Source: a virus
Lineage: Duplodnaviria; Heunggongvirae; Uroviricota; Caudoviricetes
DNA length: 64,000 bases
Direction: 5' to 3' (one strand)
Virus record (IMG/VR): IMGVR_UViG_3300042275_000481
Coordinates: 38,172-102,171 of that record
This document shows positions 13,172 to 63,768 of the stretch, one piece after another; positions within the stretch are counted from its first letter, which is position 1; each line of letters starts with the position of its first letter. Under the pieces are notes generated by a model that saw only the letters and a program-made list of their open reading frames with translations, searched no databases and had not been told where the DNA came from. Made by a program: the position numbers and the translations under genes.

Positions 13172-13229
13172 TAAATACTCCTCCTTATGTATACTAAATT
13201 TATAATATATAAATAAAATTCAGAGGAAT

Positions 13230-21765: not shown

Positions 21766-21863
21766 AGTTTATTTCCTCCTTTTATATTTTATTTCACTTC
21801 TCGAACCAATATTATAATATATGTTTAAAGAGAAAGATAGACCATATTGGTCTATCTTTCATT

Positions 21864-22412: not shown

Positions 22413-22518
22413 CCCTTCTTTTTTAATTATAATTTATTTCTTCTTCAGGTCATATTTATAATATATAAATAAAAGCATATTTACCCCCTTAAGTCTAGAG
22501 GTAAATATGCCTTATTTT

Positions 22519-22770
22519 TTATGCTAAGAACGCCTCTAGATCCTTTTTAGGTCTATAACCGACCATGGTTTGCATGTCATCTCCATCTAATTTAATTATA
22601 GTTGGGACTCCAGCAATTCCATACGACATAGCTTCTAATTGGCCTTCATCAGTGTCAATGTAATATTCTGTCATATCTAGGTTTTGTTCTTGTTTAATTT
22701 CTTCTAATATTGGTGTGATCATCTTGCAAGCGCCGCAATTTTGGGATTTGAATAATAATATTTTTGCCAT
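22519..22770 (-). CDS. thioredoxin/NrdH-like redoxin
   Basis: 83-aa thioredoxin-fold protein with a CGAC redox motif. cis-Pro region GVPTII. Next to the RNR gene. Confidence 0.65.
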   Translation of the reverse strand: MAKILLFKSQNCGACKMITPILEEIKQEQNLDMTEYYIDTDEGQLEAMSYGIAGVPTIIKLDGDDMQTMVGYRPKKDLEAFLA

Positions 22771-27987: not shown

Positions 27988-28986
27988 ACCACCGAAGGTT
28001 TTGAGTGGCTCTCCAGCTGGTCGGATGTTATTAAACACCATTCTAATATTCTTATAATCATGGTCAATTTCATAACTCATGTATTTTAAGAATTCAGTTA
28101 CAGCTTTACCCCAACCATCTCTGCTGTCTCCAACAATAATTGAAATAGTTCCATCAAGTTTTAGAACCTGAGTTTTGTCTTTTCTCATTGTCTTTGGAAG
28201 TGGGTTGTAAGGCACAACTTGTAATTTTACATCGCTTCTAAATCTTGGAAGTTTTTCTGCAACATCCCAAGTAATTCTGTATCCAACTCCAGCACCAACA
28301 GATAATAGATATAAAATATCATAGAATGAGTCTAATGTGTCTGGTTCAATAAATGAGCAGTTGAATAAACTTAAAGGATAACGTTCTGCAGCACTTGATC
28401 CACCTGTGAACATTGCACGTCCACTAAGGAAAGCTCTAAGATTAAACTGCATGTCAAATAATTGCTCAGCTTCTCTTTTAAGAAACTGCATAACTTTTTC
28501 TTCACGTTCACGAGTATCCATATTGATATTATGGTCTGTGGCACGTAAAATTGTTTCTTTAAATGTTTCTCGTCTACCTAATTCAACTACATCTCGACTA
28601 TATGTTCTCAAATAAGTAAATTTACTTACAGGGCCCATATGTTTTGGGTAGCTGTCATAGTTCACAAGGAAACTCGGTGCTAAGTACTCAGAGCTATAAA
28701 CAACATCTTTCAACGATTCTCTTCGTTTCGCTCTTGCATTTCTTCTTAATATATAATGCTCAACAGCTTCAGGATATTCCCTGATTGCATGTTGCACTTT
28801 GTTTTGAATCTCTTCTATTCCAATACCATCATAAACAACTACAGATTTAGCCATCTCTTGAATCTTTGAGTATAGTTCCTCTGCTCTTTCTTCTCCATAA
28901 GTCTCTCTGAACGCTTTGTAGATTGCCTGTTCGATTTTGGAGACATCGAATTTTTGCAATTCACCAGTTCTTTTACGAATATACAT
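27988..28986 (-). CDS. nrdJ: class II (NrdJ-like) ribonucleotide reductase, exon 1 of 3 (ATP-cone N-terminus)
   Basis: N-terminal ATP-cone (RKRTGELQKFDVSKIEQAI). Exon ends ...KTFGG. Confidence 0.7.
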
Positions 28987-32612: not shown

Positions 32613-33216
32613 TTATACTGATACTACTTCTTTTTCTTTTTGCTTGGACTCGATACGATCAATAGCCACAAGCATTTGTTTTCTTACAGCGCGCTTCAAT
32701 CCACGTGCACCATAAGTTTCGATATCAGCTGTCTTAATGATATCATCGATATCAGATTTAATGAATTTAACATCTTTTTCCATTTCCATGTACTCTTGAT
32801 ATTCTTTCTTGTATCTGTCGATTAGTGTTTCAGCGATATCTTTTTCAAGACCGTTGAACACAATGATTTCATCTAAACGGTTGATGAATTCTGGACGGAA
32901 ATGCTTTTCAACATTTTCTCTAATTTCGCTTGACTCAGTTTTATGAGTTACGAATCCAGAACTTCTAGGTTTAGCAAAGTCTTTACCATAACCTAAGTTC
33001 GTTGTGAAAATAATAATCGCATTTCTAAATGAAACACGATTTTTATGGTTATCAGTCATTTCACCTGTATCTAAGATATTCAATAATGTATCGAATACTT
33101 TTGGATGAGCTTTTTCAATTTCATCAAATAGAACGACTGAGTTTGGATACTGTTTGATTTTTGCAACTAAACCTGATTCATCATCATGGCCTATATCTTT
33201 TGTGTTACGATAGTTC
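32613..33216 (-). CDS. ClpC/ClpA-like double-AAA+ ATPase, exon 3 of 3
   Basis: GHDDESGLVAKIKQYPNSVVLFDEIEKAHPKVFDTLLNILDTGEMTD (D2 Walker B/sensor), RPEFINRLDEIIVF (sensor 2), GARGLKRAV. The 5' boundary is uncertain (33191-33216). Confidence 0.65.
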
Positions 33217-33491
33217 GCTAAACTATCTCTTTATATTTCTATAAAGAACTGACTATATCTTCACCCGATAAACGGGGTACTGCATTTCGAGTTCGCTTGA
33301 ACCCTACTCCCATAAGGGATAGTCGATGAACCTTCATCTCATTGAGATGTTTGGCTGCGGATTGCCCAATCTCTTGCCTTTTTACCATCTCTCCGACGTT
33401 ACTCTTCGATTAACAGGTAGCTAAGAGCTCTAAGGGGTTTCCCGCAATTAACAGTATTTTCTTTTGTATATCACTATACAATGGGGCGTAT
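33217..33491 (-). mobile_element. ORF-less group I intron (Clp intron B)
   Basis: R (revcomp of gggatagtcgatgaacc, 33316-33332) and S (33251-33259) elements. Conserved gcggattgcccaatct and gctctaaggggtttcccgcaatta blocks. Proposed 5' splice site after U of tgg-att. The 3' splice site is ambiguous: ..tagcg or ..gatata. Confidence 0.5.
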
Positions 33492-33628
33492 AATCCACCC
33501 AGGGGCACTACCAGTAATTTTTGTTACATCCATTTCAGTACCATATTCACCCATATTTAATTTGATTAAGTTTCGTTCAGCACCACAGAATTGCTTTGCA
33601 ACAATTTTACAAGTTTCGGTTTTACCGA
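33492..33628 (-). CDS. ClpC/ClpA-like ATPase, exon 2 of 3 (46-aa micro-exon)
   Basis: Encodes VGKTETCKIVAKQFCGAERNLIKLNMGEYGTEMDVTKITGSAPGWI. This is the remainder of the D2 Walker A (GPTG|VGKTE) through the ...G-A-P-P-G-Y-like motif. Confidence 0.6.
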
Positions 33629-33938
33629 CCGTTTATATTCCATCGAAATCGTTAATTTCAATGCGTTCTCTTATGAACTGCTTATACTTTCATATAAGAC
33701 TAGACTATATCATCACCTTTTTCAGGTGGTTTACATTTCGACTCACTTGAGTCTACTCCTTACGGATAGTCGTTGAACTTTTCTCTTATTAAGAGACTTA
33801 GCTGCTGATTGCCCAATCTACACACTTTTCAAGCCTTGGCTTTTCCTCACGGATCGCAGTGGCAGTGTAGCTCTAAGGGGTTTCCAGCAATTAGTAAACT
33901 TTGCTTATGTAAATTTCTTTACATAGGGGCTAAATTTA
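33629..33938 (-). mobile_element. ORF-less group I intron (Clp intron A)
   Basis: Exon 1 ends GPTG (ggt, U) followed immediately by TAA. The intron ends ..ataaacg (G) before gtcggtaaaacc. R (33754-33768) and S (33693-33701) elements, plus the gctgctgattgcccaatct and gctctaaggggtttccagcaatt blocks. Confidence 0.65.
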
Positions 33939-35408
33939 ACCCGTAGGACCTGCAAATACCATTGATGTCAATGGTTTCTCTGGATCGACTAATCCTCTTT
34001 CAATGTATCTTAGGTTCTCAATAACACGGTTCAATGGTCTTTCTTGACCTAATAGAACACGTTTCAACTCTTTTGCAGTTGCTTCTGTTTTGTTGTCAGC
34101 AATATTGATATCATATTTGACTTTAATCGCTGTGCGAACATCATCTGTGAAAACAATTTCACCGTCTTCATTGAAAACAGTTGAACTGGCAAATGCAAGT
34201 TCCAACATATTAATTGCTTTTGCTGGATTTGCTTGGTCAAGGGTGTATTTTTCAGAATAGTCTAAGACTTTTCTTACTAAATCGTCCTCAGCCTTCTTAC
34301 CAAAATATTCTTCGATATCAGGTTGTACACCTTTAAGAATTTGATAAGTTTGTTGTTTTGTAGGCTCACTAATGTTTACCTTATGGAAACGTCTTTCTAA
34401 TGCTTTGTCTTTGCTGATGTGTTTTTGATATTCATCATCAGTTGTAGTCCAAATCATTTGAATTTCACCACGAGTGATATATGGTTTAAGAATATTACCA
34501 CCACTTGCAGCTCCTTCTGCGTCTCCTAATTTCACCATCATATGTGCTTCATCAATGAACAGAATTACTTCTGGATTTTCTTTGACAAGTTTAATGATGT
34601 TCATAAGTTTTTCTTCAAAATCACCACGATATCTAGTTCCAGCAACTAATGCACCTGGATCTAATTGGTATACAATTTTGTTTCTGAACTTTTTAATAAC
34701 ATTTTTATTATTAATACGATTTACGAATTCATATACTGCAACAGTCTTACCTGTACCAGCAGGTCCAACGAGAATCGCATTTCTAATTGATTTTCCTGAC
34801 AAAGCCATTTGAATTTGATTAACAGCATTGTCTGCACCGATTACAACTGGTTTCGCTTGTTTCACATATCTGTTAAGATTTGTTAACTCACGGATTTTTT
34901 CCAATGCATCGATTTCTTGTTTAGTTGCAACAATATTAAATGCTTCAACAATTTTCTCAGACATTTGGTCAACTTTTTGAGTTGAACCGCCGAGAACAAA
35001 TTCAAGAATACTTCTAAGTTTATAACTTGGGTCTGAAAATAACACTTTAATAAGGTCTTCAACTTGCATTTGTCTGCGTTGTGCAAGAGCATCTCTTTTA
35101 AGTTGATTTCTTACAGCATTACCTTCTTCATGCCAAGTAACTTCAAAACGTTCTCCGCCTACATCCAATCCAGGATATAGTTCCAAGAATACCTTTTCAA
35201 AATCTTCTCCCTTAACTTCGTATTCTTGTAAGATATTCGTTAGAGTTTCATACGTCTCAGCAAATCTTTCAGTATCTTTATTCTTCTTCAAGAAGATTGT
35301 TGTACCTAAGAATAGATGAGGTGTACCAACCCAATTTTGATAGTTCTTAATTGCAATTTGTCCCGCTTTTTGCGAAATCATTTCGACTTCTTGTGATAGT
35401 GCCTTCAT
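33939..35408 (-). CDS. ClpC/ClpA-like ATPase, exon 1 of 3 (Clp-N repeat, D1 AAA+, start of D2)
   Basis: D1 Walker A GPAGTGKT. Walker B ILFIDEAH. ALERRF. Ends at ...MVFAGPTG (first half of the D2 P-loop). Confidence 0.75.
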
Positions 35409-38851: not shown

Positions 38852-38948
38852 AATTTTGTTTCCTCCCTGTTATTTGTTTTGTCGAGTTATAATTTTCCAG
38901 TAACTCGCATTTATAATATATAGTTTAAAACTTATTTAAAAATACAAC

Positions 38949-43348: not shown

Positions 43349-43419
43349 AAATATAATATATAAATGAAAAAAATATTAAGAAAAGACAAACCAGATGGTT
43401 TGTCTTAAATATTAACTAA

Positions 43420-49140: not shown

Positions 49141-51063
49141 TTAATAGTATAAATAATCCATTAGACTTTCTTCATCTTTTTCATACGTTTTTAAGTTTAT
49201 GAATTGCTCAGGTAGTCTTTCAAATGCTAATGCTTTTGCGATTGGACCATTCAATACTGTATTCGATACTCTTAGTATCTCATAATTATTTAATCTCTTC
49301 TTAGAGAAATCTAATTTGTTTCCTGTCTCTTTGTCCACGATTAATACAGAACTAATCATTTCAGCATGAACTGACATAATATCTAGTCCATTTTCTAAGA
49401 TAAGATCATCAAAGTTATTTACTAATTCATCATAGTTTTTGACATCAAGATGCCCACTAGATTCAATAAGGTCAAGAATTTGTTGCAATGATTTTGTTAG
49501 TTCATTGTTTTTAGCCATGAACGTAAATACAGCTTCATTATCGTCAAAATCGCTTCCTTTAAGTTTTATAACTTTAGTACTTTCTTCTTCCCCATCAAAA
49601 TCATATTCTTCGTCAAACTCATCTTTAATATTATTCATATTATAATATAATTTGACTTCTGGTGTCTTGTATGTAAAGACTTTCTTTCCTTGATGAATGA
49701 TTTCAATCTTTTCTGTATATTCACCAATTTCATCTTCATCTTGGTCTTCGATAGGAACTTTGTAAACAAGTACATCCGTATCTGGGTCTTTGATGAAAAT
49801 AGAATTCATATTGATTGAGAAATAGTCTAAGAATGGTTTCTTATCGTTGTAATTCCAATCAATTTTTTCTGAATTTGTGGTCAATAAATGTTTTGCGGAA
49901 AGCAATTTCTGTGTAAGTGGATTTGTTAGAAGTAATACAGATAATAATCCAGTATTTAAATCCTCATTGATTTCAGATAATTCTGAACCATAACAAGTTC
50001 TACAAACATGTCCTTCAGCCGCACATGTAACTGGCGAGCGCAGACCAATAATTTTTCCAATCAAATCTTTATTCTTGTTGGAATCTACTGTTAACAATTC
50101 GGACTCTTTCTTTCCATCTTTGTCAATAATGTAGTAATGTCTTCCATGGATTTGATCTAATTTCTTCTGAGTTTCTATATTATATTTAATATAATGCTCA
50201 GTTCCGCAGTCAACATGACTATGGTCATGATAACGGTCAATTAATGCTAATGATAATTTTCTTGTAAGATAGCCAGATTTTCTTACTTGTCTAGCGTTTG
50301 TTATGAGCGCCTTTCTTGTACCTTTTGCATTAATGAAATAGTTTTGAATAGTCTTTAAACCATTTAGATAATTCTCATCAATAGCATGGGGTATAATACT
50401 GCCATCAATATCAGGTTTCAGACCAATGAACCCAATTGCTTGTGTAAGCTGTTTCTTGTTAATTCCTGTATCCGCAGTCATAAATGGATAAAGTTCTGTC
50501 TCTGGACGGTCTAAGAAGAATTTCTCTATCTCATGTCCAAGTTTACTAAACTCATCTTCAATATCATTAAACTGCATTCTATCTTCTAACTTGTAGTTGA
50601 ATATTGCTTCTGCTTCTGGATCTTCCACATATAAGCGAACAAAGTCATGGAATGATATACTATTTCCAGCAAGTACATTTAACTCACCAGATAAGTCTGA
50701 CATTTCATTAATTGTTTCAGCTATAGTTTTTCGAAGATTATCAAAGTCAACTACAGTCTTTCCTTTGGCGATTATACTATTAAAATATTCATTAAGATTG
50801 TCCGCTGTGACAGATGCGAATCCGAAGATAAAATCTTCAGTCAAGACGACATCTTTTTCAACAAACGGTTTCATAATAAGTAAATTAATCAGCACTCTAC
50901 CAAGTGTTGCGTCAATAATCTGAGCTCCAATTTGTATCTTTGCAGGATTCTTTCTGGCGCTATAATCTTGCAAAATCAAATTCTTCAGATCGTTCTTCGT
51001 GTACTCATATTCTTCGTATTTACTGAAGATATTCGTGAAATTAAATAGTCTTTCTGAGCTCAT
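49141..51063 (-). CDS. multisubunit RNA polymerase beta'-like subunit, C-terminal-half fragment
   Basis: GTRKALITNARQVRKSGYLTRKL matches rpoC ...G.RKGL.DTALKTA.SGYLTRRL. RSPVTCAAEGHVCRTCYG matches the beta' ...C....GVC..CYG region. Followed by an ...LLTNPLTQKLL... segment aligned to the trigger-loop region. Confidence 0.6.
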   Translation of the reverse strand: MSSERLFNFTNIFSKYEEYEYTKNDLKNLILQDYSARKNPAKIQIGAQIIDATLGRVLINLLIMKPFVEKDVVLTEDFIFGFASVTADNLNEYFNSIIAKGKTVVDFDNLRKTIAETINEMSDLSGELNVLAGNSISFHDFVRLYVEDPEAEAIFNYKLEDRMQFNDIEDEFSKLGHEIEKFFLDRPETELYPFMTADTGINKKQLTQAIGFIGLKPDIDGSIIPHAIDENYLNGLKTIQNYFINAKGTRKALITNARQVRKSGYLTRKLSLALIDRYHDHSHVDCGTEHYIKYNIETQKKLDQIHGRHYYIIDKDGKKESELLTVDSNKNKDLIGKIIGLRSPVTCAAEGHVCRTCYGSELSEINEDLNTGLLSVLLLTNPLTQKLLSAKHLLTTNSEKIDWNYNDKKPFLDYFSINMNSIFIKDPDTDVLVYKVPIEDQDEDEIGEYTEKIEIIHQGKKVFTYKTPEVKLYYNMNNIKDEFDEEYDFDGEEESTKVIKLKGSDFDDNEAVFTFMAKNNELTKSLQQILDLIESSGHLDVKNYDELVNNFDDLILENGLDIMSVHAEMISSVLIVDKETGNKLDFSKKRLNNYEILRVSNTVLNGPIAKALAFERLPEQFINLKTYEKDEESLMDYLYY

Positions 51064-51201
51064 ACATACCTCCTATGAAGCTTAAATTCTCATGGTGCTT
51101 CAAGTATATAATATATTTTTATATTAATTTTAAACGTTTAAATTTTTTTGACTATGATAAATAAGGACTAACTTTTGTTAGTCCTTTTAATTAAAATAAT
51201 A

Positions 51202-54045
51202 TTATTTACTTTCTTTTAAGTTAACTAATTCTTGTGATTTTGCTTTTGCAGCCTCACCATATCTATCATGAAGCTGTTCTTGTAGTTTCTTAGCAAGAAT
51301 AGTTGTTCTTACAAGTTCTTCATAAAGAGGATCTTGCGATTCACGAGCGATAAGAAGAGACATTTGATTTTCCAATTTGTTTCTCTTTTCATCAGCAGTT
51401 AATACAACTTTACTATCTTTAGAGAAATAATCTGCTTCTAATAGGAAAGCTTCTTTAATAGATTTATAACCTTCAGTTACATCTTCAGGTTGAGCTTTTT
51501 CATCTTCTTTTTCATCAGCAGGATCTTCTAATTCACCATCATTATTGATAGTGTCAGATCCAGCATCATTAAGTTCTTCAGTTGATTTAGGTTCTTTTTC
51601 TTCGGCTTCTTCAATGATTTCAGCACGAACTTTTTTACCTTCTTCGTCAGCAGCATCATGAGGTTTAACAGAAACTTCATCATTTTTAACTTCTGGTTCA
51701 ACTTCGCAATCAGAGTCTTTCTTAGTTTTTTCTTTTTCCTCAGCTGGATTTAGAACTTCTTCTTCATTAACAACAGAATCTTCAGATTCTTCCTTTTCAT
51801 CATCATCTGATTCTTCATCATGATCTTCATCTTTAGAATCGTCTTCTAATTTTTCAGGAACTTTGTCTTCGTCATCTTTGTCGCCTTTAGTATTCTTTTC
51901 AAGTTCTTCTGGAAGTTCTTTCTTTTCTTCAGCTTCTACAACAACTTCTTTAACTTCTTCAACTTCTTTATGTTCATCACTTGGATAAACATCAGCATTG
52001 TCATCTTTAGGAGCGTCTGCAGAACCATCATTTTCTTTAGTAGCTTCATTGTCAGAATGAGCAGCATCACCTTTAGATGTTACTTCTTCAACAACAACTT
52101 CTTCTACATCATCTTCTTGCTTATGTTCATCAGCATAAAGATCTTCATTATCTACTTGGTCAGCATTTTCAGGATCATCTTTACCTTTAACTGCATCTTT
52201 TGTAGGATTATTAACTACATCAATAGCAGCAATTCCAGCTGTAGACATTTCTTTAAGAACAGCGTCAAGAACTTCTAAAGCTTCTTGTAATCTTGCAGCG
52301 TCAGATTCAGTAATTTGTTCTGATGGATTAGAAACAGGAAGTTCGATTTCGATTTTTTCTTTATATACTTTAAGATCCGCTTCGCTATCAGCAGGAACTT
52401 CAAAGTCTTCATTTAATTTTTTACCAGTAAATACACCATAAACTTCTTTTAGAGCTTCAGTAACGATTTCTTGTTCTTTATCACTAAGTTCTTTAGCAAA
52501 TTTTTCGTTTTCTCTAATTGGAAGTGTGATAAATACTGCATTTTCAGAAACTTGAATAGCGTCTTCAACGACTACTTCTTCAACTTCTTCAACTTCTTTA
52601 TGTTCATCAGCTGGGAAGACATCTTCATTATCATCTTTAGGTTCTTCTGATTCTGGTTTTCCTTCATCAGTAGCTTCATTATCTGTCTTAGCAACTTCAC
52701 CTTTAGATGTAACTTCTTCTTCAATAAGTTCTTTTTGAACTTTCTCAGGGTCAACTTCATCTGGTTGTGTTACTAATTCACCTTTAGAGTCTAATGTATC
52801 AGACTTAACATCATTAAGTTTATCTGCTTTTCCAGCATTTTCAACTTCTTTATTTGCTTTATCTAATTGCTCACCTTCTACAACAACTTCTTCGACTTCT
52901 TCTTTTTCCTCATGTTCATCTTTTGGATAAACATCTTCGTTATCGTCTTTAGGCTCTTCTGAAGTTCCTTCACCGTCTTTAGTAGCTTCAGGTTTAGCTG
53001 CTGCATCACCTTTATCAGTTACTTCTTCAACGACTACTTCTTCGACTTCTTCTGCTTCTTTATGTTCATCACTTGGATAAACATCTTCGTTATCGTCTTT
53101 AGGTTGTTCAGATTTTCCATCTTCTTCTTTAGTTGCTTCGTTATCTGTCTTAGCAACTTCACCTTTAGATGTAACTTCTTCTACAACAACTTCTTCGACT
53201 TCTTCGTCTTCATTATGTTCTTCTTTTGAATAAACATCTTCATTATCTGTATCTGGTTCTTTAGTTTCTGCGTCAGCGTCATCAGTAGCTACAGGTTCAG
53301 CTGCTGCATCACCTTTGTCAGTCACTTCTTCTTCACGTAGAGGTTTCATATCCCTAAGGATATCAAAGATACTTTCTAATGATTCGTTTACGCTTTCGAT
53401 GTTTTCATCTTTAGTTAGCGCTTTTTTATCTTGTTTGATAGTATCATCTCCTTCTTTATCTTTTGTATCATTAACATCTTTATCATTTGCTTGAACTTCT
53501 GGTTCTAATTCTTTTTCTTCAGCATCGATCTCATCATTTTCAGGAGATTCTACTTCTGCATTGACCTTTTGTCCACTAACTCTAGCACTTTCTGGTCCGT
53601 TATTTTGCATAGCTAGACGTTTTTGTTTCATCATTTCTGCATTTGCATTAGTTTCCCTAGCTTTTGCATTAGTTTCTTGAGGTGTATCAGCTTCTAATAA
53701 AACGTCAGCTTTAACAAATTTAGTATTAGGGTCATTAAGCTCTTTTAAGAATTTTGCACGTTCTTCAACAGCAAGTTCTCTCATAGAACTTACACCATAC
53801 TTCTCAAGAAGAAGATTCATTTTTTCTTTAGCAGAAAGGTCCTTGCTTTCAACAATTACTTCTTTTACTTCCTCAACTGCACTATGAGAATCCTTAGTGT
53901 ATACATCGGAATTTTTTAATTCTGGGTTACTTAATTCTGGGTTTGCCTTCTTAGTTGCTTTAGTTTCTAATTCTTCTAGAAGATTATCCAAAGCATTTTG
54001 TGTTTTTCCCTCATTAAGAAGACTACGTAGTTTATTTTTATCCAT
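51202..54045 (-). CDS. giant acidic tandem-repeat protein (947 aa)
   Basis: At least 5 tandem copies of a ~50-aa unit EEVTSKG(D/E)xAKTDNEATxE...PKDDNEDVYPSDEHKEVEEVEEVVVE. N-terminus is paralogous to 43420-44715 (VYTKDSHSAVEEVKEVIVES vs IYTKDSHKEVEEIKEVIVES). Confidence 0.55.
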   Translation of the reverse strand: MDKNKLRSLLNEGKTQNALDNLLEELETKATKKANPELSNPELKNSDVYTKDSHSAVEEVKEVIVESKDLSAKEKMNLLLEKYGVSSMRELAVEERAKFLKELNDPNTKFVKADVLLEADTPQETNAKARETNANAEMMKQKRLAMQNNGPESARVSGQKVNAEVESPENDEIDAEEKELEPEVQANDKDVNDTKDKEGDDTIKQDKKALTKDENIESVNESLESIFDILRDMKPLREEEVTDKGDAAAEPVATDDADAETKEPDTDNEDVYSKEEHNEDEEVEEVVVEEVTSKGEVAKTDNEATKEEDGKSEQPKDDNEDVYPSDEHKEAEEVEEVVVEEVTDKGDAAAKPEATKDGEGTSEEPKDDNEDVYPKDEHEEKEEVEEVVVEGEQLDKANKEVENAGKADKLNDVKSDTLDSKGELVTQPDEVDPEKVQKELIEEEVTSKGEVAKTDNEATDEGKPESEEPKDDNEDVFPADEHKEVEEVEEVVVEDAIQVSENAVFITLPIRENEKFAKELSDKEQEIVTEALKEVYGVFTGKKLNEDFEVPADSEADLKVYKEKIEIELPVSNPSEQITESDAARLQEALEVLDAVLKEMSTAGIAAIDVVNNPTKDAVKGKDDPENADQVDNEDLYADEHKQEDDVEEVVVEEVTSKGDAAHSDNEATKENDGSADAPKDDNADVYPSDEHKEVEEVKEVVVEAEEKKELPEELEKNTKGDKDDEDKVPEKLEDDSKDEDHDEESDDDEKEESEDSVVNEEEVLNPAEEKEKTKKDSDCEVEPEVKNDEVSVKPHDAADEEGKKVRAEIIEEAEEKEPKSTEELNDAGSDTINNDGELEDPADEKEDEKAQPEDVTEGYKSIKEAFLLEADYFSKDSKVVLTADEKRNKLENQMSLLIARESQDPLYEELVRTTILAKKLQEQLHDRYGEAAKAKSQELVNLKESK
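51930..53340. repeat. imperfect tandem DNA repeats (~150-bp units) inside 51202-54045
   Basis: Recurrent blocks such as ttcttcaacttctttatgttcatc...tggataaacatcttc(g/a)ttatc(g/a)tctttagg at ~51950, ~52580, ~52880, ~53040, ~53200. Confidence 0.6.
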
Positions 54046-55586: not shown

Positions 55587-55637
55587 ATAATTAATTGTTC
55601 AACTTTACCACTTTTTAAGAATCAAAAAAAAGGATAC

Positions 55638-56063
55638 TTAATATCCTTTTAATTCATCTCGTACTTTCATTATTGTTTTTCCAAGCATGTTCAAGCCATT
55701 TCCATCACAGACTCCCCAAAATTTATCTCCCCAAGTGTTGCCTTCTATTAAAACAGCATCACCAGTATCGAGAAGCATATCTTGTAAATCTGGCTCTGAG
55801 AATTTTGCTCTTATCACATGTTCCATCACTTCAACCTTGATTTCTTCCCAGTCTTCCCTTAACTTTACTTGTCTTCCTAATCTTTTTGCTTCATTAGGTG
55901 GAAGATTCTGGAATTGACTTTTTATTGAAAGGTCAAATGTTTTCTGTGCATGGAATGCAGCTTCTGCATTTTGATAAGTTCTACCATATAAAGTTAGTTC
56001 ATGAGGGTAAAAATTACTTAGAAAGTAATAGCCGCCCTTGAACTCTGCAATTTTATTGTTCAT
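55638..56063 (-). CDS. NADAR-domain protein (YbiA/DUF1768 family)
   Basis: GGYYFLSNFYP...YQNAEAAFHAQK...WGDKFWGVCDGNGLNMLGKTIM matches the NADAR signature. 141 aa. Confidence 0.7.
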   Translation of the reverse strand: MNNKIAEFKGGYYFLSNFYPHELTLYGRTYQNAEAAFHAQKTFDLSIKSQFQNLPPNEAKRLGRQVKLREDWEEIKVEVMEHVIRAKFSEPDLQDMLLDTGDAVLIEGNTWGDKFWGVCDGNGLNMLGKTIMKVRDELKGY

Positions 56064-56736
56064 AATAATTATAAACAGCGCCTTTACCTTTAATCAGTAC
56101 ATCTAAAATATCAGGCATTTCATTGTATCCAAATTTTGGAATTAGAAACTCCTTACCTTCTATATCTAGATTTTCTGCAAAGTCTGCAATATTCTTAATT
56201 TCATCATCTACAAAGATATTCCAATCTATATTCAATTTCTTGATATAATCTGATTTCTTTTCATGCAAAGGAACTGCAATCAATTCAATCTTAGAGTGAT
56301 TGAAGTACTTTTTAATGAATTTCTTTTTAGATTTTAGCATTTCTTCATCCACATATCGTGTCAAGATATAAACCTTTTTAACACGAATATGCTCCATGAA
56401 AGCCTTATTCATAAGAGTCTTCTTGGCAAAATCTGTTGGCTCCATGTTGGCGTACAAATCTGTTGAGAAGTAATCTTTTCGAATCATTTGATGTATAAAT
56501 TCTTTAATTGACAGTAGATTCTCCAGATTTTTGTACTCATCTTTAAGCAACCAGTCAGTAAGTTTGAATGTTGGTCGATTAAGCACGTCTTTATCTTTCA
56601 ATGGCCCAAGGTCGTTAAAGAATCTATTATATCTTAGCCAATTTTCTCGAATTGCTCTGTATTGGCCTGGACTAATATTTACTAGAACTTCGTCCATATC
56701 TATGATAAAGTTTCCAGATAGATTGCTTACATTCAT
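56053..56736 (-). CDS. HAD-superfamily 5'(3')-deoxyribonucleotidase-like phosphatase
   Basis: Motif I FIIDMDEVLV (DxDxV). Length and C-terminal Asp cluster (IFVDDE) are consistent with HAD nucleotidases. Confidence 0.5.
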   Translation of the reverse strand: MNVSNLSGNFIIDMDEVLVNISPGQYRAIRENWLRYNRFFNDLGPLKDKDVLNRPTFKLTDWLLKDEYKNLENLLSIKEFIHQMIRKDYFSTDLYANMEPTDFAKKTLMNKAFMEHIRVKKVYILTRYVDEEMLKSKKKFIKKYFNHSKIELIAVPLHEKKSDYIKKLNIDWNIFVDDEIKNIADFAENLDIEGKEFLIPKFGYNEMPDILDVLIKGKGAVYNYYEQ

Positions 56737-57983: not shown

Positions 57984-58328
57984 TTATAGGGCACCTCCTT
58001 CTTTCTCATCATACTTCATTTTTTTCTTAATACGCTTTTCTTCTTTTACAATAGATTTAGGAAAGTTATAAACAGTTACAAGCACTATATCTTTTTCTGT
58101 CATAGAAAATATAAATACAAAGCTTCCGTAAACTTTGACAATTTGGTTTTTTCCCTTATAACGTTCAAAATACTTTTTACCTTTTTCACTATTGAAATCA
58201 TCTATTTCCATTCCAAAAATAAATGCTTTCTCTGCAAAACGTCTCAGCTTTCCTATTGTTATTCTTTTACCTGTTTCTAGGATTCTTTCCTTACCACGTT
58301 GTAATGCGTGGTCACTAACAACAATCAT
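57984..58328 (-). CDS. hypothetical protein
   Basis: 114-aa ORF overlapping the upstream radical-SAM gene stop. Confidence 0.35.
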   Translation of the reverse strand: MIVVSDHALQRGKERILETGKRITIGKLRRFAEKAFIFGMEIDDFNSEKGKKYFERYKGKNQIVKVYGSFVFIFSMTEKDIVLVTVYNFPKSIVKEEKRIKKKMKYDEKEGGAL

Positions 58329-59047
58329 TGTACATCTTTTCCTTCTTTATCTTCCCAATGACTGTATACTTTTCCGTCAGCTCTGAAAATTTCATATCTT
58401 CCGTGGCTGTCTTGACAACTTGCATCTAGTCTTACACTAACTTTCTTATTGCCATTGAATTTATCAACGATTGCATATATATTGGAAAGATCTTTCATTT
58501 CATTTGCATCAATCCATTTATTCGTATCTTCATCTTCTGTTGTTTGAAGAACTTTAAACGTGATTTGTTCAAACCCCATTGGACTGAAATTCTTTGCTGT
58601 AAGGAAATCAAATTCGTTAGTTAATAGAATGACTAATCGATTTTTTGCATTTGGAAGTCTTCTCAAACTCCATGCTTGAAGATATTCCTTACTATTTGTA
58701 ATACTGTATGCTAATACAGACAATTCGTGAAAATCATAATTCTTGACGCTGTAATTCTTTGTTTGTAATTCAGTATGATAACCCTTTAAGGTTTCCAATA
58801 CATCACTTAACCAATGACTATTTAAAGTCGGATCGGATGCTCCTGTAATCACAAAATCTTTATATTTACCAGATTCAGTTAATGCTTTTAATTTATTCAG
58901 ATACTCCTCCCGATTCTCTGAATACATATCTGGAAATCTTTTTCTTCCACTTGCGATGCACATTGGGCACTTAAATGGACATGGTTCATAAGGCATGCTT
59001 ACTTGTAAGTTCATGATAAACCTCCTCTTTCTATTGCAGTAATGCAA
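58325..59047 (-). CDS. radical SAM domain protein
   Basis: N-terminal CPFKCPMC (C-x3-C-x2-C) cluster. Downstream Gly-rich VITGASDPTLN segment (SAM-binding GGE-like). Confidence 0.5.
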   Translation of the reverse strand: MHYCNRKRRFIMNLQVSMPYEPCPFKCPMCIASGRKRFPDMYSENREEYLNKLKALTESGKYKDFVITGASDPTLNSHWLSDVLETLKGYHTELQTKNYSVKNYDFHELSVLAYSITNSKEYLQAWSLRRLPNAKNRLVILLTNEFDFLTAKNFSPMGFEQITFKVLQTTEDEDTNKWIDANEMKDLSNIYAIVDKFNGNKKVSVRLDASCQDSHGRYEIFRADGKVYSHWEDKEGKDVQ

Positions 59048-60169: not shown

Positions 60170-60223
60170 AGAATAACCTCCCTTTAATAAAATAAAGAGA
60201 ACCCGAAGGTTCTCTTTTTATTT

Positions 60224-60407: not shown

Positions 60408-61496
60408 TTATAGTTCTATAATATTTTCTAAAATTTGTTCAATCTTATTAAAATTCCAATAGGGTATCCTAATAAGTTTTATACCTTTTTGCTTACAATA
60501 TTCATCTTTTAAATGGTCATTGTATTTTTGTTCAGACAACTTATCTAAACCGAAAATAGGTTCATAATGAAATTCACCATCATATTCTATTAAGGTATTA
60601 CTATCAGATAGAAAAAAGTCAAATCTTAGTGGATTGATAAATTTCAAATCTTCAAACGAAAACTCTCTTTCAAACTGTATCTTTCTATTTTCTAGCCATT
60701 CTGATATTTTATTTTCACCCTTTGATGACTTACAAATAGGGCACCTATCACCAGATAGGAATCTTGTTGGACTAACGTCATATATATTACCACACTTATT
60801 ATGTTTTATTCCTATTTTTGTATGTGTGTTTGTATAATCTTCTAAAACACTATATTCGTCGCCTATTAGATTAAAAACTTCTTCCTTAAATTCTTTGGTG
60901 GATTTCTTAAATTTTCCATTACAAATAGGACACCTATCACCAGATAGGAATCTTGTTGGACTTACTTTATATTCACTATCACACACAAGATGACGCATTT
61001 TTATCTTTGAGTCGCAATTAACATAATCACTTAAAACACTATATTCGTCACCTACTAGATTAAAAACTTCTGCTTTAAAGTCCTCGGTAGATTTTTTTAT
61101 CAGTCCTGCACATTTTGGACAACCATGTCCTTTTAAGATATTTACAGGTGTTGGTTCATATTCAAAACCACATTTTTTGTGCCTCATAAGTATAGGAGTT
61201 TTGTTATTTTTATAATCACCCAATACTTCATATTCAGGTCCTAATATATCCATAACATCGTCTTTAAAGGTATCAATAGTTTTTCTTAGACCGTTTCCAA
61301 CTTTTATAATAGCACATTTTGGACAACCATGTCCCCGATTTATCATTCGGCTAGGATGTGCTTCAAATATATTTCCACACTTCTTGTGCTTCATGGTTAT
61401 TTTTGTATTGGTGTTTGTATACTCTCCTAAAACTTCATACTCATCACCAAATTTTACTTCAACTTCTTTAATAAATGATTCAGTAGTTCTTTTCAT
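60408..61496 (-). CDS. free-standing homing endonuclease (zinc-ribbon repeats + Vsr/DUF559-like nuclease)
   Basis: Five tandem H.KCG..(Y/F)...P...L.G.GCP.C modules. C-terminal IEYDGEFHYEP...D..K..YC...GIKLIRIPYWN. Confidence 0.6.
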   Translation of the reverse strand: MKRTTESFIKEVEVKFGDEYEVLGEYTNTNTKITMKHKKCGNIFEAHPSRMINRGHGCPKCAIIKVGNGLRKTIDTFKDDVMDILGPEYEVLGDYKNNKTPILMRHKKCGFEYEPTPVNILKGHGCPKCAGLIKKSTEDFKAEVFNLVGDEYSVLSDYVNCDSKIKMRHLVCDSEYKVSPTRFLSGDRCPICNGKFKKSTKEFKEEVFNLIGDEYSVLEDYTNTHTKIGIKHNKCGNIYDVSPTRFLSGDRCPICKSSKGENKISEWLENRKIQFEREFSFEDLKFINPLRFDFFLSDSNTLIEYDGEFHYEPIFGLDKLSEQKYNDHLKDEYCKQKGIKLIRIPYWNFNKIEQILENIIEL

Positions 61497-61558
61497 AAAA
61501 ACCTCCCTATACCTAGAATGTATAAATAAATTATTTGTTCTAAGTAAAGGGATTATTT

Positions 61559-62218
61559 TTACAGTTCAATTATGTTACTCTTATATTTTGTTTGGTCGAT
61601 GTCCTCAATATAGACACCCAAGCTTTCTAAAAGAATATATCCATTTTGCATATTTTTACTTACCATTGTTCGGTAGTCAATAAGTGGTCGTAGATATTCA
61701 GGAATTCTTTCCACACCTTTTGGAACAGCAACAACGCTCATTCCAAATCGTGAAATATCAATTTCAGGTTCATCTACGTTTCGATTAAATACTGTGCGAC
61801 TAATTGCGCCATATTTTTTCGGATAAGTATCTTTTAGTTTCTCTAATTCTGGATGATTTTCATCTACTGTTTTTAACTTAAGTAGATTTACTTTTTCTGG
61901 TGGAACTATTTGATTTTCAGGTTCTAGCGCATTCCATATAATTGCTCCTCTAACCTGTTCAAGCGTAGATGGATCTTTATATTGCTCAAATTGCTCTATA
62001 CTCTTTGGAAGTGAATATAATAATTCTCCGCCTCTTAGTGATTCTTCAATTTCTAAACCTAATTCATCAAATTTATTAATAATAGTTCTAATATTAATAT
62101 CTTCCGCTGACAGAATATCTTCCTGTAAAATTGTCGTAAATTGTTCACGTAATTTCTTAGGAACGTTTGTTTTCCTTATGGCTAACATATATCTTCCATT
62201 GAGTTCGTTAACTCTCAA
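61559..62218 (-). CDS. 3'-terminal exon of an intron-interrupted gene of unknown product
   Basis: The ORF begins with TTG inside conserved intron-3' sequence (..cataagagaacg|cattgagag..). The true acceptor is probably ~62180-62200. Confidence 0.45.
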   Translation of the reverse strand: MRVNELNGRYMLAIRKTNVPKKLREQFTTILQEDILSAEDINIRTIINKFDELGLEIEESLRGGELLYSLPKSIEQFEQYKDPSTLEQVRGAIIWNALEPENQIVPPEKVNLLKLKTVDENHPELEKLKDTYPKKYGAISRTVFNRNVDEPEIDISRFGMSVVAVPKGVERIPEYLRPLIDYRTMVSKNMQNGYILLESLGVYIEDIDQTKYKSNIIEL

Positions 62219-62455
62219 TGCGTTCTCTTATGAACTGCTCATACTTTCATATGAGATGAGACTATATCTTCATCTTTCGATGTTTCCTGTTTCGGACCAC
62301 TTGGTCCTACTCCTTACGGATAGTCGTTGAACCTTCATCTCATTGAGATGTTTGGCTGCGGATTGCCCAATCTACACACTTTTCAAGCCTTGGCTTTTCC
62401 TCACGGATCGCAGTGGCAGTGTAGCTCTAAGGGGTTTCCCGCAATTAAGGAAATT
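62219..62455 (-). mobile_element. ORF-less group I intron (unknown-gene intron 2); boundaries approximate
   Basis: R (62318-62333) and S (62249-62257) elements, plus the gctgcggattgcccaatct and gctctaaggggtttcccgcaatt blocks. Nearly identical to Clp intron A. Confidence 0.55.
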
Positions 62456-62461
62456 TTATAA

Positions 62462-62550
62462 GAGCATAACTGTTTACCCTTAATATCAAGAACTGGTTTG
62501 TCTAATAGACGCCCAAGTTCACCTGTAATTAAACCGGCATACATAATTTT
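62462..62550 (-). CDS. internal micro-exon of the unknown intron-interrupted gene (approx. boundaries)
   Basis: Only one frame is open between the two introns: KIMYAGLITGELGRLLDKPVLDIKGKQ... It begins right after an intron-terminal G (..gagtttaattg|aaaatt). Confidence 0.4.
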
Positions 62551-63768
62551 CAATTAAACTCGCTAAGTTTAATTCGCTTTCGCTGCTCATATTTTCATAT
62601 GAGATAAGACTATATCTTCAGATATTTATTGAACGTAAATATCTGTCTTCCTTTTCCAATAGGCTTCTATTGTACTCGCATTGCGATAGTCGTTGAACTT
62701 TTTTCTTAAAATTAATTCTTCAAGTATATTTTCAAGTTGTTTATAATTTTTATATGATAATCTTAATAGTGTATACTTAGATAATTGTATAATATTATTT
62801 TTTCTATTGTCTCGTTCTCTAATAACATCAATAGATTCAAATAATGATTTTTCTTTAAAATGTTGTATTCCATCATATTCAATTATTAGATTTAAAGAGT
62901 CAATAATAATATCTACTCTTAAATCCGTATTGAATAATTTAGAATCAAATTCAAATAAAATATTATTTTTTTCTAAGAACTGAATTATTTTTCTTTCACC
63001 TTTAGAAACTTTCTTAGAACAAATAGGACATCTACTAGCAACAGATTTTGATATGAAATTGTTCGCTTTTACGTCCCATTCATGACCACATTTATTATGT
63101 CTTAGTTTAATTTTTGTTCTAGTGTTTGTATATGGTGATATTAATGAATACTCATCCCCAACAGTTTCCTCTAGTTTTCTTTTAAACATTTCTTCAGTCC
63201 AAGTTCCTTTCCCAGAACAATACGGACAAGAATTTTTTTGATTCAAAAGATTATTTGCTCTCATTTTGAATTCATGACCACATTTATTATGCTTAAAAAT
63301 TGATGATTTATTTGCATAACCTGAATAATCTAATACTGAATACTCATTATCTAATTCTATTTCTAGTCTTTTTATAAGATTTTTTTCAGTTAATCTTATA
63401 GAACCTGAACATTTAGGACACCTTCTTCCATTATTAAACGTATTAGGTGCTACTAAATACTCATGGCCACATTTATTATGTCTTATTAAGATTTTAGTTT
63501 TTGAATTTATATAATCATTCCCAAGAACTGTATATTCCATTCCAACTTGATTTTTTACTTTGTGTTTAAAACTTTCTAGTGTATCTTTTTTCATAATATC
63601 ACTCCTTAATAATTTGTTCAATGAGTGACAACATGAAATAAAAAGTTCTTAATTTTAAGAAACTTAGCTGCTGATTGCCCAATCTTTCAGATTTTCAAAC
63701 ATTCACGCTCACTTTTGCAAGTCACGTTGTAGTTCTGAAAGCTCTAAGGGGTTTCCAGCAATTAAAAA
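62551..63768 (-). mobile_element. group I intron (unknown-gene intron 1) carrying an intact homing endonuclease gene; 5' boundary approximate
   Basis: R (62674-62689, inside the 3' end of the HE ORF) and S (62618-62626). 5' blocks gctgctgattgcccaatct (63661-63679) and gctctaaggggtttccagcaatt (63742-63764). Confidence 0.55.
62626..63621 (-). CDS. intron-encoded homing endonuclease (zinc-ribbon repeats + Vsr/DUF559-like nuclease)
   Basis: Four H.KCGHE(Y/F/W)...N....RCP.CSG modules. IIEYDGIQHF...D..R..K......LLRLSY. Confidence 0.6.
   Translation of the reverse strand: MNKLLRSDIMKKDTLESFKHKVKNQVGMEYTVLGNDYINSKTKILIRHNKCGHEYLVAPNTFNNGRRCPKCSGSIRLTEKNLIKRLEIELDNEYSVLDYSGYANKSSIFKHNKCGHEFKMRANNLLNQKNSCPYCSGKGTWTEEMFKRKLEETVGDEYSLISPYTNTRTKIKLRHNKCGHEWDVKANNFISKSVASRCPICSKKVSKGERKIIQFLEKNNILFEFDSKLFNTDLRVDIIIDSLNLIIEYDGIQHFKEKSLFESIDVIRERDNRKNNIIQLSKYTLLRLSYKNYKQLENILEELILRKKFNDYRNASTIEAYWKRKTDIYVQ

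Follow-up and report, generated by a model that had tools for sequence, protein, structure and literature searches.

We consider it probable (at roughly 60%) that the gene at 55638-56063 of the window, by which we mean the whole 64,000-nucleotide stretch of viral DNA that was analysed, encodes a stand-alone and catalytically competent NADAR ADP-ribosyl-glycohydrolase of the AdfN^Bas32 clade that undoes guanine-specific DNA ADP-ribosylation of the DarT1 type. The gene belongs to an AR9-like jumbo phage with a GC content of 31%, and the following features, listed with the evidence on which they were called, define it and its surroundings:

55588-55599, minus strand: AACA-N6-TA box (AACAATTAATTA), found by motif search and fitting the AR9 late-promoter consensus
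55624-55650, minus strand: hairpin resembling an intrinsic terminator, with a 10-bp stem and a 3-nt loop followed by a U-run (RNA fold)
55638-56063, minus strand: NADAR (YbiA-fold) gene, 141 aa (ATG-initiated open reading frame, PF08719, structural model)
56053-56063, minus strand: 11-nt overlap (ATGAACAATAA) of the HAD-like gene's 3' end with the NADAR start (read directly in the sequence)
56053-56736, minus strand: gene of a HAD-superfamily phosphatase, the co-transcribed upstream neighbour of NADAR (HAD motifs and structural model)
60194-60217, minus strand: strong hairpin terminator with a 10-bp stem, a GC-rich centre and a T-run (terminator scan and sequence)

A NADAR domain with an intact active site

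The sequence-only reading had recognised a NADAR (YbiA-like) domain by its signature motifs and had proposed the Pfam profile PF08719 as a check, and both hold up. All of the motifs are present (FLSNF at residues 14-18, AEAAFHAQK at 33-41, WG at 111-112 and 116-117, G-L-N-M-L-G at 123-128), and PF08719 matches the 141-aa product with 94.9 bits (E=7.9e-27; gathering cutoff 35.1) across profile positions 9-163 of 163, a match well outside what chance would give. The protein also matches phrog_1017 (E=1.6e-45), and among solved structures it is closest in sequence to E. coli YbiA (2b3w, 2.4e-16) and PnNADAR (8bau, 4e-9). The same two entries, the latter in ADP-ribose-bound form, are the only significant Foldseek matches in the PDB to the AlphaFold model (pLDDT 96; TMq 0.85 each), which has a YbiA-like alpha-helical core with flanking small beta-sheets. 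The full-domain profile score, the YbiA-like fold and the presence of the catalytic residues place the protein in the PF08719 (DUF1768) superfamily.

The Glu/Lys pair spaced seven residues apart (E43/K50 in PnNADAR) corresponds to E34/K41 and the E125 position to E107, a Glu typical of the YbiA subfamily; E34, K41, E107 and D113 are invariant in an alignment of 126 homologues. When contact residues were mapped onto PnNADAR from the sequence alignment and the residue list in PMC11543638, ADP-ribose was predicted to be contacted by E34, K41, K60, G63, R64, D71, W72, K76, E107, D113 and W116. Ten of the 12 ADP-ribose contacts of PnNADAR are identical in the window protein, one is conservatively replaced (R93 by K76) and one is different (Y84, here R69). 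K60 aligns with K75 of PnNADAR and K115 of the E. coli C7 NADAR, a lysine that is not needed for catalysis but is needed for rescue in vivo (PMC11543638). The equivalent lysine is kept in AdfN^Bas32, whereas alignment shows A in YbiA and Q in T4 gp30.3, the very two that gave no rescue of uninfected cells.

The window contains a single NADAR copy. With a GC content of 0.352 (mean of the genes 0.311±0.034) and a GC3 of 0.261 (mean 0.217±0.049), the gene is not clearly foreign and thus gives no clear sign of recent horizontal acquisition. The open reading frame is a genuine stand-alone NADAR enzyme and an ordinary phage gene.

Characterised NADARs and the probable substrate

Among relatives with a tested function, the closest is AdfN^Bas32, the product of bas32_0066 of the T5-like phage IrisVonRoten, which is 45.5% identical to the window NADAR over 143 aa (full length; E=6e-41). 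It is one of three phage NADARs that were experimentally proven to be anti-DarT factors and named AdfN (PMC11825919; Johannesman et al. 2025): in E. coli, AdfN^Bas32 neutralises DarT1, and with it three phages can again form plaques on hosts with DarTG1 (PMC11825919). Like the window NADAR, it is a phage orphan and minimal in size (149 aa against 141 aa), and the two share the E/K/E/D catalytic set, the LIEGNTWGD..WGVC motif and the K60-equivalent lysine. Both genes lie amid genes of replication and nucleotide metabolism and both are accessory, being present in some close relatives and absent from others (Bas32 carries a NADAR gene and Bas28 does not). The phages, however, differ, AdfN^Bas32 coming from a Demerecviridae siphovirus of Enterobacteria rather than from an AR9-like jumbo phage, as do the neighbouring genes; and AdfN^Bas32 is known from phage rescue, the window NADAR from sequence and a model. 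In a neighbour-joining tree that was built without AdfN^Bas60, DarG1 and the full PnNADAR sequence, the two proteins fall into one clade with E. coli YbiA outside it. The window NADAR is thus both a phage-encoded orphan and a homologue of a validated AdfN (AdfN^Bas32).

That a phage copy could plausibly act as an anti-DarT factor had been proposed from the sequence, and for three other phage NADARs this has since been demonstrated; the counter-defence idea is therefore not new, having been published as AdfN (Johannesman et al. 2025). We judge it well founded also for the window gene, because AdfN^Bas32 neutralises DarT1 and lets phages escape DarTG1. The earlier statement that NADARs remove ADP-ribose from guanine in DNA likewise agrees with the literature, in which every NADAR assayed to date removes guanosine-ADPr (PMC11833690 included). 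The toxin that had been named, DarT2, was the wrong one: it modifies thymidine, the NADARs tested are inactive on thymidine-ADPr (PMC11543638, PMC11125620, PMC11825919), and no phage AdfN countered DarTG2, so the relevant toxin would be the guanine-specific DarT1.

We propose the following mechanism. A guanine-specific ADP-ribosyltransferase of the host, DarT1 of DarTG1 or a similar toxin, would attach ADP-ribose to guanine N2 in phage single-stranded DNA and so block its replication. The NADAR would hold the ADP-ribose through K41, K60, R64, W72, K76, D113 and W116, with E34 and E107 flanking the distal ribose; hydrolysis of the N-glycosidic bond would then restore the unmodified guanine, a counter-defence of the orphan-antitoxin type. 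Placed last among the cistrons of a replication-gene unit that would run from DNA polymerase through the dTMP-phosphatase-like gene to NADAR and a terminator, the enzyme may be expressed when replicating single-stranded DNA is exposed.

The same chemistry could act on another nucleic-acid target, namely guanosine-ADPr in RNA or the cytidine-ADPr left by pierisin/ScARP-like or other toxins of the host or of competitors, and to this we give a small but real chance. YbiA-type and T4 NADARs strip guanosine-ADPr from RNA (PMC11833690), certain NADARs, YbiA-type ones included, remove cytidine-ADPr (PMC12945103), and the window NADAR bears the YbiA-subfamily Glu E107; the physiological substrate could therefore differ from the one proposed here. 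However, the sole in vivo phage phenotype of any NADAR is anti-DarTG1, which is exactly what AdfN^Bas32 shows, and we found in the literature no phage defence based on RNA or cytidine ADP-ribosylation that a NADAR reverses. A slimmer chance goes to soluble substrates. For most phage NADARs, Iyer, Burroughs and Aravind (Iyer et al. 2022; PMC9503650) made the case that the targets are soluble derivatives of ADP-ribose; the enzyme would accordingly degrade signals of immunity, or toxic products of NAD+ breakdown, that arise from NADase-type host defences. They predicted that NADARs cut N-glycosidic links in ADPr derivatives, and reported that some 48% of medium and jumbo phages have one, frequently together with Macro, SLOG or Nudix domains (PMC9503650). 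Against this stand the experimental data since 2023, which point to removal of ADP-ribose from nucleic-acid bases, a literature in which we found the soluble activity demonstrated for no NADAR, and the absence of a Macro, SLOG or Nudix partner adjoining the window gene.

E. coli YbiA (2B3W) is like the window NADAR in its fold (TM 0.85), in 36% identity and in the Glu at the third catalytic position, and differs in being a chromosomal gene of a LexA-controlled operon and in lacking the K60-equivalent lysine; it removes guanosine-ADPr in vitro and gives no DarT1 protection in vivo. YbiA is the best match of the window NADAR in both sequence and fold among solved structures, and the NCBIfam equivalog-domain profile TIGR02464 (riboflavin biosynthesis intermediates N-glycosidase) gives 82.3 bits against a cutoff of 73.7, which would fit a metabolic rather than an anti-defence gene, a metabolite-repair N-glycosidase acting on reactive riboflavin-pathway intermediates or similar ribosylamines. 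We hold this to be very unlikely. The window NADAR lies near the cutoff, and genuine YbiA scores 169.5 and the anti-DarT1 AdfN^Bas32 66.3, from which it follows that the label does not discriminate between functions; after scoring of these reference proteins it was rejected as a functional assignment. The tree places the window NADAR with AdfN^Bas32 and outside YbiA, there are no riboflavin genes (RibA/RibD) among the scanned proteins of the window, and the NADAR gene is dispensable in syntenic relatives. The marginal TIGR02464 score and the YbiA-type Glu, taken with the failure of YbiA to protect from DarT1, nevertheless speak against an anti-DarT1 role.

Two other groups of NADARs lie further away. 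AdfN^T4 (T4 gp30.3), whose anti-DarTG1 function is proven, is like the window NADAR a phage orphan with the SNF motif and the catalytic E and K, but the two have no similarity detectable by BLASTP; AdfN^T4 has its own Pfam family (PF08010), its clade has His for the third catalytic Glu, and it needs the T-even context for full activity. The DarG1 or BC4488-type antitoxins (E. coli C7, G. lovleyi) share with the window NADAR the superfamily, the predicted chemistry and the lysine (K60 = K115). Antitoxins linked to DarT1 have a basic N-terminal extension (beta1-beta2-alpha1), for which a DNA-binding groove for single-stranded DNA was proposed (PMC11543638). In the 141-residue window protein the NADAR domain begins at residue 11, and no additional N-terminal elements appear in the model; by the model the protein consists of the minimal core domain and lacks this extension, an observation that also counts against an anti-DarT1 role. 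Membership in DarG1 was rejected: the extension is missing, the third catalytic residue is Glu (E107) and not Asp as in E. coli C7 (D171), no DarT1 is adjacent, PADLOC gave no DarG match, and DarG1 is not among the significant sequence or Foldseek matches.

The nearest relatives in isolated phages are gp80 of Bacillus phage phi18-2 (58% identity), SPbeta-like NADARs (57%) and AR9 g140/PBS1 gp27 (54%), for none of which did we find a functional characterisation in the literature. Their neighbours differ from those in the window, being NrdF, dUTPase, ThyX and a cytosine methyltransferase in phi18-2 and SbcC in AR9.

Transcription unit and neighbouring genes

The terminator at 60194-60217 lies ahead of a string of genes that runs from 60169 to 55638 and ends in NADAR, and it is probably the upstream boundary of the transcription unit. 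The 11-nt overlap of the HAD-like gene with NADAR is conserved in the relatives L083-L090. Inspection of the sequence reveals no Shine-Dalgarno element at the usual distance from the NADAR start, and translation of NADAR is therefore likely coupled to that of the HAD-like gene. The hairpin at 55624-55650 (-8.4 kcal/mol, z=-2.8) has the NADAR stop codon (55638-55640) as its loop. A homologous hairpin with a T-run follows NADAR in L087 and L088 and, in the NADAR-less relatives L096-L098, follows the HAD-like gene directly.

The box at 55588-55599, which was compared with the AR9 late-promoter consensus from PMC5312081, is conserved as gAACAAyTAATTAtatg at the corresponding junction of L087, L088, L096, L097 and L098, and we infer that it is the promoter at the start of the next transcription unit, which has the Shine-Dalgarno sequence AAAGGAG and an ATG at 55565. 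The box is thus a boundary feature outside the NADAR unit. This AR9-type motif analysis took the place of a sigma-70 promoter scan, in which 42 promoters were found against 35.9±6.9 expected, not above chance. A tRNA scan found no tRNA.

The HAD-like protein conserves HAD motifs I-IV (D13/D15, T/S126, K149/K161, D177-D178), and its model (pLDDT 95) has a 5'(3')-deoxyribonucleotidase-like fold, the top seven PDB matches all being mdN/cdN deoxyribonucleotidases (E~6e-7). Its only phage homologues are in AR9/PBS1, S6-like, BpSp and LPJP1 jumbo phages; it is a backbone gene of this AR9/PBS1-related clade and probably orthologous to the dTMP phosphatase that PBS1-type dU-DNA phages encode, described for PBS1 as Dtm_PBS1 (PMC12697855). 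Dtm_PBS1 is UniProt A0A223LEB8, and its equation with PBS1 gene 39 is putative.

The sequence-only reading had taken the adjacent HAD nucleotidase and a downstream radical-SAM gene as signs of a neighbourhood of nucleotide or DNA chemistry. For the first gene the assignment stands, as the deoxyribonucleotidase matches show, but the argument from the neighbourhood holds only in part: NADAR is missing from three syntenic relatives that retain the HAD-like gene, and when all 74 ORFs of the window were compared by tblastn with 82 viral loci that contain NADAR, none of the neighbours turned out to accompany it, so the neighbourhood says little about NADAR function. A conserved neighbourhood module was rejected on the latter ground, and an obligatory HAD-NADAR pair was rejected since L096, L097 and L098 keep the backbone without NADAR (confirmed at the DNA level). 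The radical-SAM gene lies, on the coding strand, four genes upstream of NADAR and not downstream, inside a separate variable island; it belongs to a small, uncharacterised family (111 representatives), and its linkage to NADAR was rejected as it is absent from the close relatives L088-L090 and L096-L098. Pfam, PHROGs and PADLOC gave no ART or DarT match among the neighbours within about 4 kb.

The coupling of the two genes raises the question of a joint function. NADAR and the dTMP-phosphatase-like enzyme might remodel the dNTP pool for uracil-DNA, for example with NADAR as an N-glycosidase on thymidine nucleotides; the overlap conserved in L083-L090 without a separate Shine-Dalgarno sequence, the resemblance of the HAD-like protein to the PBS1 enzyme and the 54%-identical NADAR of AR9/PBS1 would fit. 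We regard this as scarcely probable, given that L096-L098 retain the HAD-like gene and the whole backbone with no NADAR at the site, that the AR9 NADAR and HAD-like genes are about 9 kb apart, and that hundreds of phages not known for dU-DNA (T5-like, SPbeta-like, Staphylococcus) carry a close homologue of NADAR. The missing co-occurrence in the 82 loci points the same way, and a 2025 study of dU-DNA enzymes mentions NADAR 0 times (PMC12697855). Quite improbable, too, is that the pair forms a two-layer unit of DNA-base protection in a uracil-DNA jumbo-phage clade, in which the replacement of T by U would alter or remove the thymine target of DarT2 and NADAR would repair the guanine target of DarT1. 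The grounds for this reading are the dTMP-phosphatase-like gene and the AR9-type promoter motifs of the window.

Phage relatives and accessory distribution

NADAR genes are very common in large phages and were found in 779 of 50,697 phage records. Among the relatives of the window phage, NADAR is present in L087 and L088-L090, and L096-L098 have the same conserved junction without it; its absence from these three syntenic relatives marks it as an accessory insertion and not a part of a conserved module. Counter-defence genes typically show such a patchy, accessory distribution.

If the anti-DarT1 reading is true, the orphan-antitoxin strategy of AdfN reaches an uncultured lineage of AR9-like jumbo phages, and the view gains support that large phages are widely under selection from guanine ADP-ribosylation of DNA. 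The K60 lysine, kept in the clade of AdfN^Bas32, the Bacillus-phage NADARs and the window NADAR and absent from YbiA and T4 gp30.3, offers a testable predictor of autonomous activity, and the insertion of NADAR at a precisely conserved terminator/promoter junction is an example of how accessory genes are slotted into jumbo-phage backbones. The K60 pattern and the junction insertion are mildly new and leave the current understanding unchanged.

The window phage itself is new and distantly related to the AR9/PBS1 jumbo phages; its RNAP beta' is about 33% identical to theirs. When the locus was compared with known phages by megablast, nothing matched, and the phage thus has no close cultured relative. 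A probe with the phage GAPDH found matches of 60-67% identity in Bacillota and Bacteroidota, with a weak lean towards Bacillota.

NADAR fold, active site and relatives

An ATG-initiated ORF of 141 aa on the minus strand has its ends exactly at 55638..56063, where the sequence-only reading had placed a NADAR-domain gene, and every motif quoted in its favor is found there. The observation is confirmed: the product of this ORF (the query) matches the PF08719 HMM at 94.9 bits (E=7.9e-27; gathering score 35.1), and the alignment, beginning at query residue 11, spans nearly the entire profile. PHROG 1017 (function unknown) is matched as well (1.6e-45). Of solved structures, two alone are matched by the query sequence, YbiA of E. 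coli (2b3w, 2.4e-16) and PnNADAR of Phytophthora (8bau, 4e-9); the same two are the only significant Foldseek matches in the PDB (query-normalised TM 0.85 each) of the AlphaFold2 model, which was built with 103 homologues as input (mean pLDDT 96).

The residues of PnNADAR that contact ADP-ribose were listed by Schuller et al. 2023 (PMC11543638). The numbering of the PDB chain is that of the paper +2, and this offset holds at 12 of 12 residues in the query alignment.

ADP-ribose-contacting residues of PnNADAR and their query counterparts
E43: E34
K50: K41
K75: K60
G78: G63
R79: R64
Y84: R69 (not conserved)
D86: D71
W89: W72
R93: K76 (conservative)
E125: E107
D130: D113
W133: W116

Residues E34, K41, E107 and D113 do not vary across 126 aligned sequences. 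At the E125 position the query has the Glu of the YbiA subfamily, whereas DarT1-linked antitoxins have Asp and T4-like phage NADARs His (PMC11543638). In the DarT1-linked NADARs an N-terminal extension forms the putative ssDNA groove; the query model shows no such extension and only ten residues precede the Pfam alignment, so the query is a minimal NADAR core. Action on soluble ADPr-derived signals is, in our view, unlikely.

The closest characterized relative of the query is AdfN^Bas32, the NADAR of T5-like phage IrisVonRoten/Bas32 (MZ501075, bas32_0066), to which the query is 45.5% identical over 143 aa (BLASTP, E=6e-41). Identity is 58% to gp80 of Bacillus phage phi18-2, 54% to AR9 g140 and 36% to YbiA, and BLASTP similarity to T4 gp30.3 is absent. 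In a neighbour-joining tree, 101 of the 126 sequences, the query and AdfN^Bas32 among them, form a clade with YbiA outside; the topology is no more than indicative, since the tree was rooted on the divergent T4 protein. The query also scores 82.3 bits (cutoff 73.7) with TIGR02464, named "riboflavin biosynthesis intermediates N-glycosidase" in NCBIfam, but this name was rejected as a function because true YbiA scores 169.5, the Bacillus-phage proteins 78-79 and AdfN^Bas32 66.3. YbiA-like metabolite repair, with which the Glu at the E125 position would agree, is thus quite improbable.

The slot 3' of the RNase H gene in T5-like phages is fixed, but its occupancy by the AdfN^Bas32-type NADAR varies: the gene is carried by Bas32 and 96 more records at >=95% identity, and is missing from sibling phage Bas28.

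AdfN^Bas32-type NADAR in T5-like phages
L094:642-1091 (Bas32 locus); compare L095 (Bas28 locus) and L092:2498-3539

In GenBank this NADAR goes by names as different as "swarming motility protein", "GTP cyclohydrolase II" and "antitoxin-like enzyme". One record also gives the name "swarming motility protein" wrongly to the following gene (171 aa), which has no similarity to NADAR.

Guanine ADP-ribosylation and the proposed role of the query

NADARs hydrolyse ADP-ribose on guanine N2, the toxin specific for guanine being DarT1, whereas DarT2 modifies thymidine, its mark being reversed by the DarG macrodomain (PMC11543638). Guanosine-ADPr is cleared by each of the four NADAR types associated with E. 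coli, YbiA and T4 gp30.3 among them, and thymidine-ADPr by none (Cihlova et al. 2024). Johannesman et al. 2025, who coined the name AdfN for phage NADARs, reported that T4 gp30.3, AdfN^Bas32 and AdfN^Bas60 counter DarTG1 and not DarTG2. The proposal that a phage NADAR serves as an anti-DarT factor is therefore sound, and already published for AdfN, but its "DarT2-type" part was wrong, since the thymidine adduct is left in place. Iyer et al. 2022 (PMC9503650) put the share of medium and jumbo phages with NADAR at about 48%, and we found homologues by tblastn in 779 of 50,697 phage records.

A counter-defence role, already established for close relatives, is reasonable. We favor, with a probability of roughly 0.6, a scheme in which a host DarT1-type toxin would put ADP-ribose on guanine of the phage DNA and the query, as an AdfN-like orphan antitoxin, would strip it from that guanine. 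The same chemistry might be directed at guanosine of RNA or at cytidine, adducts that are substrates of NADARs (cytidine-ADPr for some members; PMC11833690, PMC12945103); given the DarTG1 results with AdfN proteins, we regard such targets as possible, though doubtful.

For the favored antitoxin role, K60 of the query may deserve attention. It corresponds to K115 of the E. coli C7 NADAR, which is not needed for catalysis but is essential for in vivo rescue from DarT1 (PMC11543638). The lysine is kept in the query, AdfN^Bas32, AR9 and 122/126 homologues, whereas YbiA has Ala there and T4 gp30.3 has Gln. AdfN^Bas32 rescued uninfected cells, while YbiA and T4 gp30.3 did not (Cihlova et al. 2024; Johannesman et al. 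2025). The lysine would thus track rescue of uninfected cells, a possibly useful correlation over very few data points.

Neighbours and transcription unit

The immediate upstream neighbour (56053-56736, minus strand, 227 aa) had been called a HAD nucleotidase, which is borne out at the fold level. It has no Pfam match and no PDB sequence match; all four HAD motifs are conserved through its 50-member family, and the top seven PDB matches of its model (pLDDT 95) are mitochondrial and cytosolic 5'(3')-deoxyribonucleotidases (E about 6e-7, TM 0.5-0.6). Its homologues among isolated phages (19 records) occur only in AR9/PBS1, S6-like, BpSp and LPJP1 jumbo phages. In PBS1 the homologue is gene 39 (L099:2971-3696), which immediately follows the gene for DNA polymerase, an arrangement shared by the window lineage. 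The PBS1 dTMP phosphatase, Dtm_PBS1, a previously uncharacterised mdN-fold protein, was identified in 2025 (PMC12697855), and the HAD-like protein is probably its orthologue, the dTMP phosphatase of this jumbo-phage clade. This hints that the window phage may have thymine replaced by uracil in its DNA (dU-DNA). No dCTP deaminase was seen among the scanned proteins of the 64-kb window.

The NADAR ATG lies inside the end of the HAD-like gene (11-nt overlap, ATGAACAATAA); as it lacks a Shine-Dalgarno sequence, the two genes are likely coupled in translation. Functional coupling of the query to the dTMP phosphatase for dU-DNA synthesis is nevertheless very improbable in view of the distribution of NADAR. 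In the window's own lineage (syntenic loci L083-L090, NADAR identity 68-100%) the conserved block comprises a 307-aa gene, the HAD-like gene, NADAR, 123-aa, 263-aa and 83-aa genes and a large acidic protein. Three more distant syntenic contigs (L096-L098, 177-301 kb) keep DNA polymerase, ~310-aa, HAD-like (53-67% identity) and ~120-aa genes, further genes, the acidic protein and RNAP beta', and lack NADAR, as tblastn confirms. In 82 viral loci with homologues of 41-62% identity, NADAR is accompanied by none of its window neighbours. Though it had been described as downstream, the radical-SAM gene is found on the coding strand four genes 5' of NADAR; the island that houses it, bounded by DNA polymerase and the 307-aa gene, is variable and has a different content in each relative. 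NADAR is therefore an accessory gene, gained by or lost from a conserved backbone, and of the argument from context the nucleotidase fold stands, while the conserved "DNA-chemistry" module was rejected.

NADAR ends within a 10-bp hairpin that precedes a U-run (-8.4 kcal/mol, z=-2.8), its stop codon serving as the loop. Directly 3' is the box gAACAATTAATTAtatg, which fits the AR9 late-promoter consensus AACA-N6-TA (PMC5312081), and then a Shine-Dalgarno sequence and the next gene. This junction (window 55588-55650) is common to L087 and L088, which carry NADAR, and to the NADAR-less L096-L098, where the hairpin is directly 3' of the HAD-like gene. The box, gAACAAyTAATTAtatg, is conserved though flanking proteins are only 39-67% identical among relatives, which suggests a predicted AR9-type late promoter under strong constraint in this clade. 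The only strong terminator 5' of the NADAR unit is at 60217-60194; judged from these signals, NADAR is the last cistron of a unit with replication-associated genes, consistent with its expression while DNA replicates.

Phage lineage and other genes of the window

Megablast found no related phages. The RNA-polymerase beta' fragment (49141-51063) has ~33% full-length identity to the subunit of AR9/PBS1, BpSp, Staphylococcus S6-like phages, phiR1-37 and LPJP1, by which the window phage is placed as a novel, distant member of the AR9/PBS1-type jumbo-phage assemblage. Seven copies of the AR9 early-promoter core TATATATTAT (PMC5312081) occur in the window, each in intergenic DNA (1.0 expected if uniform) and 6/7 on the coding strand.

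Copies of TATATATTAT
43353-43362, minus
38913-38922, minus
27870-27879, minus
22458-22467, minus
13202-13211, minus
1876-1885, minus
1037-1046, plus

Of 13 copies of the shorter ATATATTAT, 12 are intergenic, one being 5' of the RNAP beta' gene (51108-51116). This placement implies that the virion-RNAP early-promoter motif is conserved from AR9 to this very distant phage and supports a shared transcription strategy.

Possibly more noteworthy than NADAR are the phage GAPDH and ribosome hibernation factor, a small radical-SAM family and the lineage itself, probably a new one of dU-DNA jumbo phages.

Other genes of the window (all minus strand)
20749-21765: glyceraldehyde-3-phosphate dehydrogenase (GAPDH), full length (Gp_dh_N 3e-36, Gp_dh_C 4e-59)
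21864-22412: long-form ribosome hibernation factor HPF
22519-22770: thioredoxin
25917-26801: ribonucleotide reductase alpha chain, barrel piece
27985-28986: ribonucleotide reductase alpha chain, ATP-cone/N-domain (ORF 26922-27848 between the pieces)
33936-35408: Clp/AAA ATPase (separate C-terminal fragment 32613-33083)
51202-54045: extremely acidic protein, 947 aa, internal repeats, motifs e.g. DNEDVYP.DEHKE.EEVEEVVVEEVT.KG
58325-59014: radical-SAM protein, 229 aa from conserved ATG (true start 59014)
61559-62218: DNA-polymerase C-terminal piece (58-66% identity to relatives' divDNApol)

For a phage, GAPDH and the adjacent HPF and thioredoxin are an unusual cargo; early-promoter cores like those of AR9 (21814-21822, 22458-22467) are situated just 5' in this region. 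No reference bacterial genome exceeds 67% identity to the GAPDH, whose matches are mostly Bacillota, also Bacteroidota.

The small, uncharacterised radical-SAM family (111 cluster representatives among 1.84 billion proteins) has an invariant C12-x3-C16-x2-C19 (CxxxCxxC). The protein has no PHROG match, weak sub-cutoff NCBIfam models only, and as sole Pfam model the generic Radical_SAM (29.0 bits, slightly under the 29.5 cutoff); profile similarity to viperins and aminofutalosine synthase is weak, and a match to the anti-CBASS Acb1 domain occurs in one member of the family. The radical-SAM protein is perhaps a so far unexplored enzyme of phages with an accessory or anti-defence role. In the 68%-identity relatives, a CTP_transf_like (nucleotidyltransferase, NMNAT-like) gene (L088:5511-5993) replaces it in the island, which lies 5' of the 304-aa/HAD/NADAR block; the island seems to gather differing nucleotide- or NAD-related accessory genes.

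The acidic protein holds the same position, 5' of the RNAP beta' gene, in all relatives, where its counterparts have 1069-1195 aa. Several core genes appear interrupted (60408-63621, 25917-28986 and 32613-35408, minus strand). The DNA-polymerase piece is flanked by paralogous ORFs of ~330-360 aa (60408-61496 and 62626-63621) that resemble homing-endonuclease-type insertions, and introns, inteins or homing endonucleases are the likely cause of the interruptions.
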